Of a stretch of DNA of 56,349 nt, positions 55,988 to 56,349 are shown in pieces (the first letter of the stretch is position 1; each line of letters begins with the position of its first letter). The translations under genes were made by a program, and so were the position numbers. The notes beneath the pieces are model-generated. The model saw nothing but the letters and a program-made list of their open reading frames with translations. It was not told where the DNA came from and did not search any database. This DNA is from a virus, in UHGV virus genome UHGV-0011358; one strand, written 5' to 3'.

Positions 55988-56349
55988 ATGAGGTTAATGC
56001 TTATGAGTATGCGGCTAATGGTAGAGGTCTTCCATACTGAGGTCGGCGACCCAATGCACAAACTGGTGCTGTTGAAGTTAGCTGATAACGCTAATGATAA
56101 CGGAGAGTGTTATCCTTCTTACCATCACATAGCAAAGGAGTGTGAGATCAGCAAAAGAACAGCTATGAGGGCTGTAGACTCACTTTGTGAAAAAGGGTTG
56201 TTGATTAAACAACCAAGATACTTAATCGGAGGAAAAGAGCAAACTAGTAATTTCTATGTAATAGTCCTTCCGTCATTGCATGGTAGTGTCACTGTGACAC
56301 CGGGGGTAGTGTCACAGAGTCACTGGGGTAGTGTCACAGAGTCACTGGG
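55988..56349 (+). CDS. replication initiator-like HTH protein, N-terminal part (runs to window end)
   Basis: HTH domain followed by in-gene iterons; ORF reaches the window edge without a stop. Confidence 0.5.
   Translation, partial: MRLMLMSMRLMVEVFHTEVGDPMHKLVLLKLADNANDNGECYPSYHHIAKECEISKRTAMRAVDSLCEKGLLIKQPRYLIGGKEQTSNFYVIVLPSLHGSVTVTPGVVSQSHWGSVTESL
56282..56349. repeat. iteron array (three copies of a 22-23 bp repeat), candidate origin
   Basis: GGTAGTGTCACTGTGACACCGGG / GGTAGTGTCACAGAGTCACTGGG x2, truncated by the window end. Confidence 0.6.

Follow-up and report, generated by a model that had tools for sequence, protein, structure and literature searches.

A putative lambda-type replication origin inside the initiator gene of an mEp021-like coliphage, divided by the ends of the assembled genome

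The viral genome UHGV-0011358 (56,349 nt, here called the window, meaning the whole stretch of DNA that was analysed) is very likely that of an mEp021-like coliphage which the assembler linearised within the iterons of its replication origin, with the loss of ~14 nt, the origin lying in the middle of the initiator gene. Judged by alignment to related phages, the two ends of the window are the two halves of one rep gene, cut within a predicted internal origin. The architecture is consistent with a lambda-type origin embedded in an initiator gene, and every architectural feature of such an origin that could be tested was found. What the ends record is an assembly break in a lambda-style origin and not new biology.

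Contig ends and the restored initiator gene

An earlier note on this DNA had proposed, from its letters, that the window ends are contiguous inside an iteron-type origin, and alignment to relatives bears this out. A query of 1800 nt made by joining the last 900 and the first 900 bases of the window aligned in a single piece to mEp010, mEp554, mEp044, mEp021 and mEp013 at 86-93.5% identity, and the matched gene in each of these five phages is a single one of 984-999 nt, annotated as 'DNA replication protein O' or 'putative replication protein'. In mEp515 and MagusPhagus the joined query matched only outside the N-terminal half of rep. Base 1 of the window corresponds to mEp010 position 7992 and base 56349 to mEp010 position 8007, which leaves exactly 14 nt unrepresented. 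The gap is constant among relatives, being exactly 14 nt against seven of them (mEp010, mEp021, mEp554, mEp044, mEp013 and two E. coli prophages), and it falls within the fourth of four iterons. The same 14-nt block is likewise absent from the window when it is set against contig L054, the closest contig and the source of the homologous protein P0001, where the flanks of the junction align over 621 nt (7 mismatches) and 713 nt (16 mismatches). In every relative with the window's type of N-terminal domain (type A, defined below) that was aligned across the junction, the junction sequence is continuous, and in all of these but E. coli 190 a single open initiator gene of 317-342 aa runs across it.

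Direct end-to-end joining, which had been suggested as a test for one continuous initiator ORF, does not yield one, since the two halves meet out of frame and a stop follows after 3 codons; nor do the window ends share a terminal overlap of at least 5 nt. Once the missing nucleotides are restored a continuous ORF results: insertion of the 14-nt sequence GGTAGTGTCACAGA completes the fourth iteron and fuses both ORFs into one of 1002 nt that encodes 333 aa. The halves do lie in different frames, as had been noticed, but the proposed cause, a miscount of whole iteron copies, does not fit, because the 14 absent nucleotides amount to ~0.6 of an iteron. Among 5.8 billion proteins searched, the closest homologue is the metagenomic P0001, which shares 99% identity with the restored protein and has four iterons; P0001 measures 328 aa from an internal ATG, equal to the restored window protein counted likewise. 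A 25-nt pattern predicted for the junction of iteron 4 with its flank, CAGAGTCACCCTAATCAGTCATATA, is present verbatim in the ENA metagenome contig L051, the fourth iteron of which matches the restored one. The predicted pattern had no match in GTDB genomes, and exact-pattern scans of viral and metagenome contigs for the window's own iteron variant were likewise without a match. The record is to be circularised with ~14 nt added and its partial ORFs merged into one rep gene; without this repair, gene callers will split the gene into a shortened HTH protein and a stray ORF that lacks a start.

The length of the missing piece is deduced from the relatives and the reading frame only, and gaps of 14+45n or 14+66n nt would restore the frame as well, 14 nt being by far the most likely. 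Among the relatives the number of iterons is two (RM9245), four (most of them) or six (L015, P0024, P0072), with every change a multiple of 45 nt (23+22), or 15 codons, so that the frame is kept. The ends could therefore be contiguous with more than 14 nt missing between them, in the form of six or more iterons (14+45n), of extra 22-nt copies (14+66n) or of a copy number that varies in the population, and the length or variability of the array would then be what stopped the assembler. This is compatible with the existence of the six-iteron relatives, with the second and third iterons of the window being identical over 22 nt, which neighbouring iterons in most relatives are not, and with the assembly having resolved a 53-nt dispersed repeat and yet stopped at repeats of no more than 26 nt. 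We nevertheless regard a longer gap as unlikely: four iterons are present in the closest relatives read from sequence (P0001-P0004, at 96-99% protein identity, and L054), a number with which the 328-330 aa of the remaining cluster representatives at or above 90% identity agree, and a gap of 14 nt is the most parsimonious by which alignment and frame are both repaired.

A linearisation point chosen at random would land in the ~90-nt array with a probability of ~0.2%, which makes a connection of the break with the iteron repeats very probable. A simple k-mer repeat break explains it only in part, because no exact repeat within the array exceeds 26 nt and the assembly passed through one of 53 nt elsewhere (14475/15261); the true array may be longer or more heterogeneous than the reconstruction. 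As a long shot, the contig may have broken here because the iteron array is unstable in the phage population (or, as the other form of the same conjecture, the 81-aa paralogue described below may regulate origin firing in trans). If the array were unstable, its exact 22-nt copies would expand and contract between genomes, and both the strength of the origin and the length of the Rep linker would vary within one lysate.

Iteron array and AT-rich stretch

The HTH-encoding ORF that opens at 55988 runs, as described in the earlier note, into three repeats of 22-23 bp, located at 56280-56346. Iteron 1 (56280-56301) has the core GGTAGTGTCACTGTGACACC with a perfect 7-1-7 palindrome, GTGTCAC-T-GTGACAC, and is conserved in register in all type-A relatives. 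Iteron 2 (56303-56324) reads GGGGTAGTGTCACAGAGTCACT, and iteron 3 (56325-56346) is an exact copy of it. Iteron 4 is split by the window ends, its first bases, GGG, lying at 56347-56349 and its last bases, GTCACC, at 1-6, with the predicted ~14 nt between them absent. The spacing of the iterons in the window's last 70 bases is 23 and 22 nt. A search of the 56-kb window for the 19-nt core GGTAGTGTCACAGAGTCAC, with up to 3 mismatches allowed, gave these three copies and no others, against a chance expectation of 0.02, and none of 100 shuffled sequences reached three occurrences. All of the iterons are built on the dyad GTGWC-N5-GWCAC, and the array is thereby a cluster of direct repeats with dyad symmetry of the lambda type, comprising three iterons and the split fourth. 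We found no DnaA box at the origin.

Iterons 2 and 3 of the window both end in T (56324 and 56346), where every relative has C. These substitutions change the linker from R/Q to W and from P to L and turn iterons 2 and 3 into exact 22-nt copies; the T-ending copies may reflect gene conversion between repeats.

Directly 3' of the iterons lies a stretch of 76% AT (8-49), a putative DNA-unwinding element that ranks in the top 0.7% of 42-nt windows by AT content and is near-invariant across type-A relatives. The start of the window had been described as AT-rich over positions 10-60; the AT-richness is real and the limits differ, bases 50-66 being C-rich. An AT-rich region of ~40 bp adjoining the iterons is a further lambda-type feature. 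Together, the four 22-23-bp iterons and the 42-bp stretch of 76% AT would constitute an origin in the linker-coding middle of rep. By analogy to lambda O and ori-lambda, dimers of the N-terminal winged-HTH domain of the initiator would bind the dyad-symmetric iterons, the resulting nucleoprotein complex would destabilise the adjacent AT-rich DNA, and the C-terminal domain would bring in the phage's own DnaB-like helicase (3428-4843).

Alternatively, the repeats could be a repetitive peptide linker only, with no role in cis and the true origin elsewhere in the genome. The linker peptide is indeed repetitive, in units of 15 aa. The period of 22/23 nt, however, has the same DNA motif read in two frames, so that two different peptides, GSVTVTP and GVVSQSH, alternate, and across relatives the linker amino acids vary while the DNA motif and its third-codon positions are conserved. 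In a comparison of 13 distinct type-A sequences, invariant third-codon positions made up 80% of those in the iterons and 64% of those in the AT-rich stretch, compared with 34% in the N-terminal and 38% in the C-terminal coding flanks and 10% in the variable part of the linker alongside (Fisher p = 2e-6 for the excess). The type of iteron, moreover, swaps jointly with the N-terminal DNA-binding domain, and in both types of cassette described below the repeats are succeeded by a conserved tract of AT-rich DNA. A linker without a function in cis is thus very improbable, and these comparisons indicate that constraint acts on the iteron and AT-rich DNA and not on the peptide.

The Rep protein

The 5' part of rep (55988-56349, + strand) has no stop before the window ends and encodes the N-terminal winged-HTH domain and the start of the iteron-encoded linker. 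Candidate starts are found at 55988 and at 56003. The second has GAGG 9 nt upstream, and its equivalent ATG is the annotated start in most relatives. The N-terminus belongs to Pfam HTH_36 (PF13730; E 7e-15, 55 bits against a cutoff of 25, residues 22-72), which is the sole Pfam match above cut-off, those to MarR_2 and DnaD_N falling below it, and all 120 of the homologues listed carry PF13730. Rep also matches PHROG replication initiation families, several 'O-like' families among them, and its residues 1-97 are 100% identical to the mEp010 'DNA replication protein O'. No NCBIfam family was found for Rep.

The 3' part (3-626, + strand, stop at 624-626) encodes the remainder of the linker and the C-terminal domain in 207 codons without an ATG. 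An ORF open from position 3 and free of Met had been noted here, correctly; the length of 171 aa given for it is instead that of the stretch running from a TTG at 111. In the restored 333-aa ORF the iterons occupy approximately codons 98-128, between the DNA-binding and the C-terminal domains, and this layout is shared by the type-A relatives aligned across the junction, with one open ORF in each except E. coli 190. In the chromosome of that strain (NZ_CP020520, 2709839-2710773) the run of six C just past the AT-rich region is one base shorter, at five, and the annotation divides the prophage rep into two CDS as a result; the E. coli 190 rep is either a pseudogene or the product of a homopolymer error in that assembly.

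The C-terminal half of Rep matched no Pfam family, even at E<=10, and a search for PDB relatives by sequence found none. An AlphaFold model of this half was confident in part, with a pLDDT of 63 overall and values near 90 for residues 30-118, and a Foldseek comparison of the C-terminal model with the PDB returned no hit below E=1. From the analogy to lambda and from the conservation of the C-terminal domain across both cassette types, we infer that this domain may serve in helicase recruitment.

Two interchangeable cassettes

Relatives of the window fall into two types by the N-terminal domain of the initiator: type A, with an HTH_36-type N-terminus as judged by the motif MVEVFH, and type B, with a Lin1244_N-type N-terminus that was Pfam-tested on mEp515 only. 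Iterons of the GGTAGTG type are present in 14 of 14 scored type-A loci, and all 35 type-B loci have four or five GGTCATGA repeats and an AT/purine-rich tract at the same interdomain position, so that DNA-binding domain and iterons co-vary without exception, as in lambda-type origins, among loci that are not phylogenetically independent. The C-terminal domain is common to both types, and a conserved AT-rich tract lies 3' of the repeats in both. Within type A, the residues of the predicted recognition region (SKRT, SKST, NKST) track variants of the iteron core.

The second origin cassette occurs within the same phage group, in mEp515, MagusPhagus and IMG/VR contigs (L006, L007, L016-L047 and L049). 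These type-B initiators (mEp515, MagusPhagus and ~33 IMG/VR contigs) share the C-terminal domain and the gene position of the window's Rep but differ in their Lin1244_N N-terminal domain and in their repeats, which are shorter than the window iterons at ~11 nt and read GGGTCATGA in four to five copies; the tract that follows is rich in GAA/TTAGAA and of variable length.

The first gene of the rightward operon (55736-55984, + strand) codes for a free-standing winged-HTH domain of 81 aa, a paralogue of the one in Rep, with 37% identity to the Rep N-terminus over 60 aa (E 2e-11). It is 98-100% conserved across type-A phages that differ in their iteron cores. The small HTH gene upstream of rep in type B is only 38% identical to it, so the paralogue is replaced in type B and travels with the N-terminus of Rep and the iteron cassette. 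It may be a Cro-like or an origin-linked regulator.

Comparison with lambda and P22

The window had been matched to lambda O with its origin inside the gene. The match holds for architecture and fails for sequence homology. Gene O of the lambda record contains four iterons followed by an AT-rich stretch, the same layout as in the window, and ori-lambda, like the candidate origin here, sits in the middle of an initiator gene, in the part coding for the interdomain linker, and combines dyad-symmetric direct repeats with ~40 bp of AT-rich DNA. Also lambda-like is the pattern in which the N-terminal domain and the iterons co-vary while the C-terminal domain is shared. Lambdoid origins have four iterons in lambda and six in Stx phages, with extra residues added to O (PMC7466680). 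Copy number thus varies among relatives in both systems, but steps of a 45-nt doublet distinguish the window's group from lambda.

In sequence, on the other hand, the 22-23-bp iterons of the window are unlike those of lambda, a BLASTP comparison of Rep found no similarity to lambda O (best E 0.09, over 13 residues), and Pfam Phage_rep_O (PF04492) was absent from Rep at E<=0.01. Membership in the lambda O family was rejected on the N-terminal match and also on the downstream genes, where no loader of the P or DnaC type was recognised among the five ORFs scanned. By these comparisons the likeness to lambda is functional and not homologous.

Downstream of rep lie a Rha/Ant-like gene, a 376-aa gene with an N-terminal HTH (PHROG 704), an HNH endonuclease gene and the gene for a DnaB-like replicative helicase of 471 aa (3428-4843, + strand; DnaB_C E 2.5e-76, DnaB N-terminal domain E 5e-12, PHROG 19), which is the likely partner recruited to the origin if the analogy to lambda holds. 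Scans of five downstream ORFs against Pfam and PHROGs recognised no P- or DnaC-type loader. In place of a lambda-like P loader, the phage encodes its own DnaB-like helicase. Phage P22 has in gene 18 an O-like initiator with the origin inside the gene and in gene 12 a phage-encoded DnaB-type helicase, with no loader for the host helicase. As no P- or DnaC-like loader was recognised here, the replication module of the window resembles P22 genes 18/12 more closely than lambda O/P, a likeness of function.

The HNH homing-endonuclease gene (2785-3393, + strand; HNH_3 E 2e-21, with an AP2-like domain) stands between the 376-aa PHROG-704 gene and the helicase gene, and its 5' end overlaps the upstream ORF by ~115 nt.

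With the reconstruction given here, the gut-prevalent mEpimmI coliphages would join the phages that have an origin inside the initiator gene. Their origin would use an initiator unrelated in sequence to lambda O, together with two interchangeable cassettes of DNA-binding domain and iterons, as an example of convergent or mosaic origin design that is useful and unsurprising. It offers a precise target for origin mapping in a common gut coliphage group, the published description of which (PMC11893012) mentions neither iterons nor an origin.

Genome setting and neighbouring genes

Compared along its whole length, the window appears to be the complete, circularly permuted genome of a temperate E. 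coli phage of the mEp021-like (mEpimmI) group. Local BLAST of the whole window showed full-length collinearity with mEp010, in reverse orientation, at 76-96% identity per aligned block and 82-92% in most blocks, and membership in the group follows from this collinearity and from nucleotide similarity to mEp021 and mEp010. Host DNA flanking both ends had been named as an observation that would speak against contiguity; the window contains none, because it runs without interruption across the ends of the mEp010 record, which lie beside the integrase, and its own int/attP region is intact in mid-window, with the integrase at 7913-9160. The other such observation, an upstream ATG-initiated gene unrelated to the HTH ORF, was not made either. 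A reading of the window as a plasmid-prophage was rejected, a plasmid collection having given no match.

The small terminase is Sf6-like, and because Sf6 is a headful-packaging phage, packaging by the headful mechanism and circularly permuted virion DNA are to be expected here as well. A distance of ~20 kb separates the terminase genes from the window ends, which argues that these are ends of the assembly and not physical ends of the DNA.

The mEpimmI phages mEp021, mEp010, mEp554, mEp044 and mEp013 (PMC11893012) have the same replication module, repressor, integrase and structural genes as the window. None of their records is identical to it, the best match in the rep region being 93.5%, and the window differs from all of them in that its rep is split by the contig ends and its repressor is frameshifted.

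The repressor, a cI-like protein of the LexA/S24 type, is encoded divergently from the rep operon (54786-55432, - strand). Against all six relatives checked it carries a 1-nt deletion at ~55273 (CCC to CC on the + strand), which separates an HTH part (55175-55432) from an S24 peptidase part (54786-55232). This frameshift marks either a clear-plaque/virulent mutant or an error of sequencing. The idea that pervasive homopolymer errors caused both the repressor frameshift and the junction gap is unsupported, because the other non-triplet indels relative to mEp010 are confined to divergent or intergenic stretches or are compensated.

An inactivating lesion in the repressor does lend something to a different account of the junction, in which the sequence is correct, the circle closes directly, and the phage is replication-defective, its Rep cut short after ~123 codons by a genuine deletion of 14 nt from the origin; the E. 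coli 190 prophage, with its own frameshifted rep, offers a parallel. Such a deletion would, however, have to match both contig ends to the base, which is the prediction of an assembly break and not of a mutation, and an excised circle with an intact attP and no host DNA bespeaks a replicating or packaged phage that needs Rep. The lack of a terminal overlap to mark a closed circle points the same way, and we consider a real deletion extremely unlikely. We retain an assembly break as the origin of the gap.

A scan for promoters and terminators near the rep operon gave nothing above chance. The longest exact repeat in the genome, a 53-nt direct repeat at 14475-14527 and 15261-15313, lies inside a gene for a 1670-aa J-like tail protein (13203-18215) and was assembled through.
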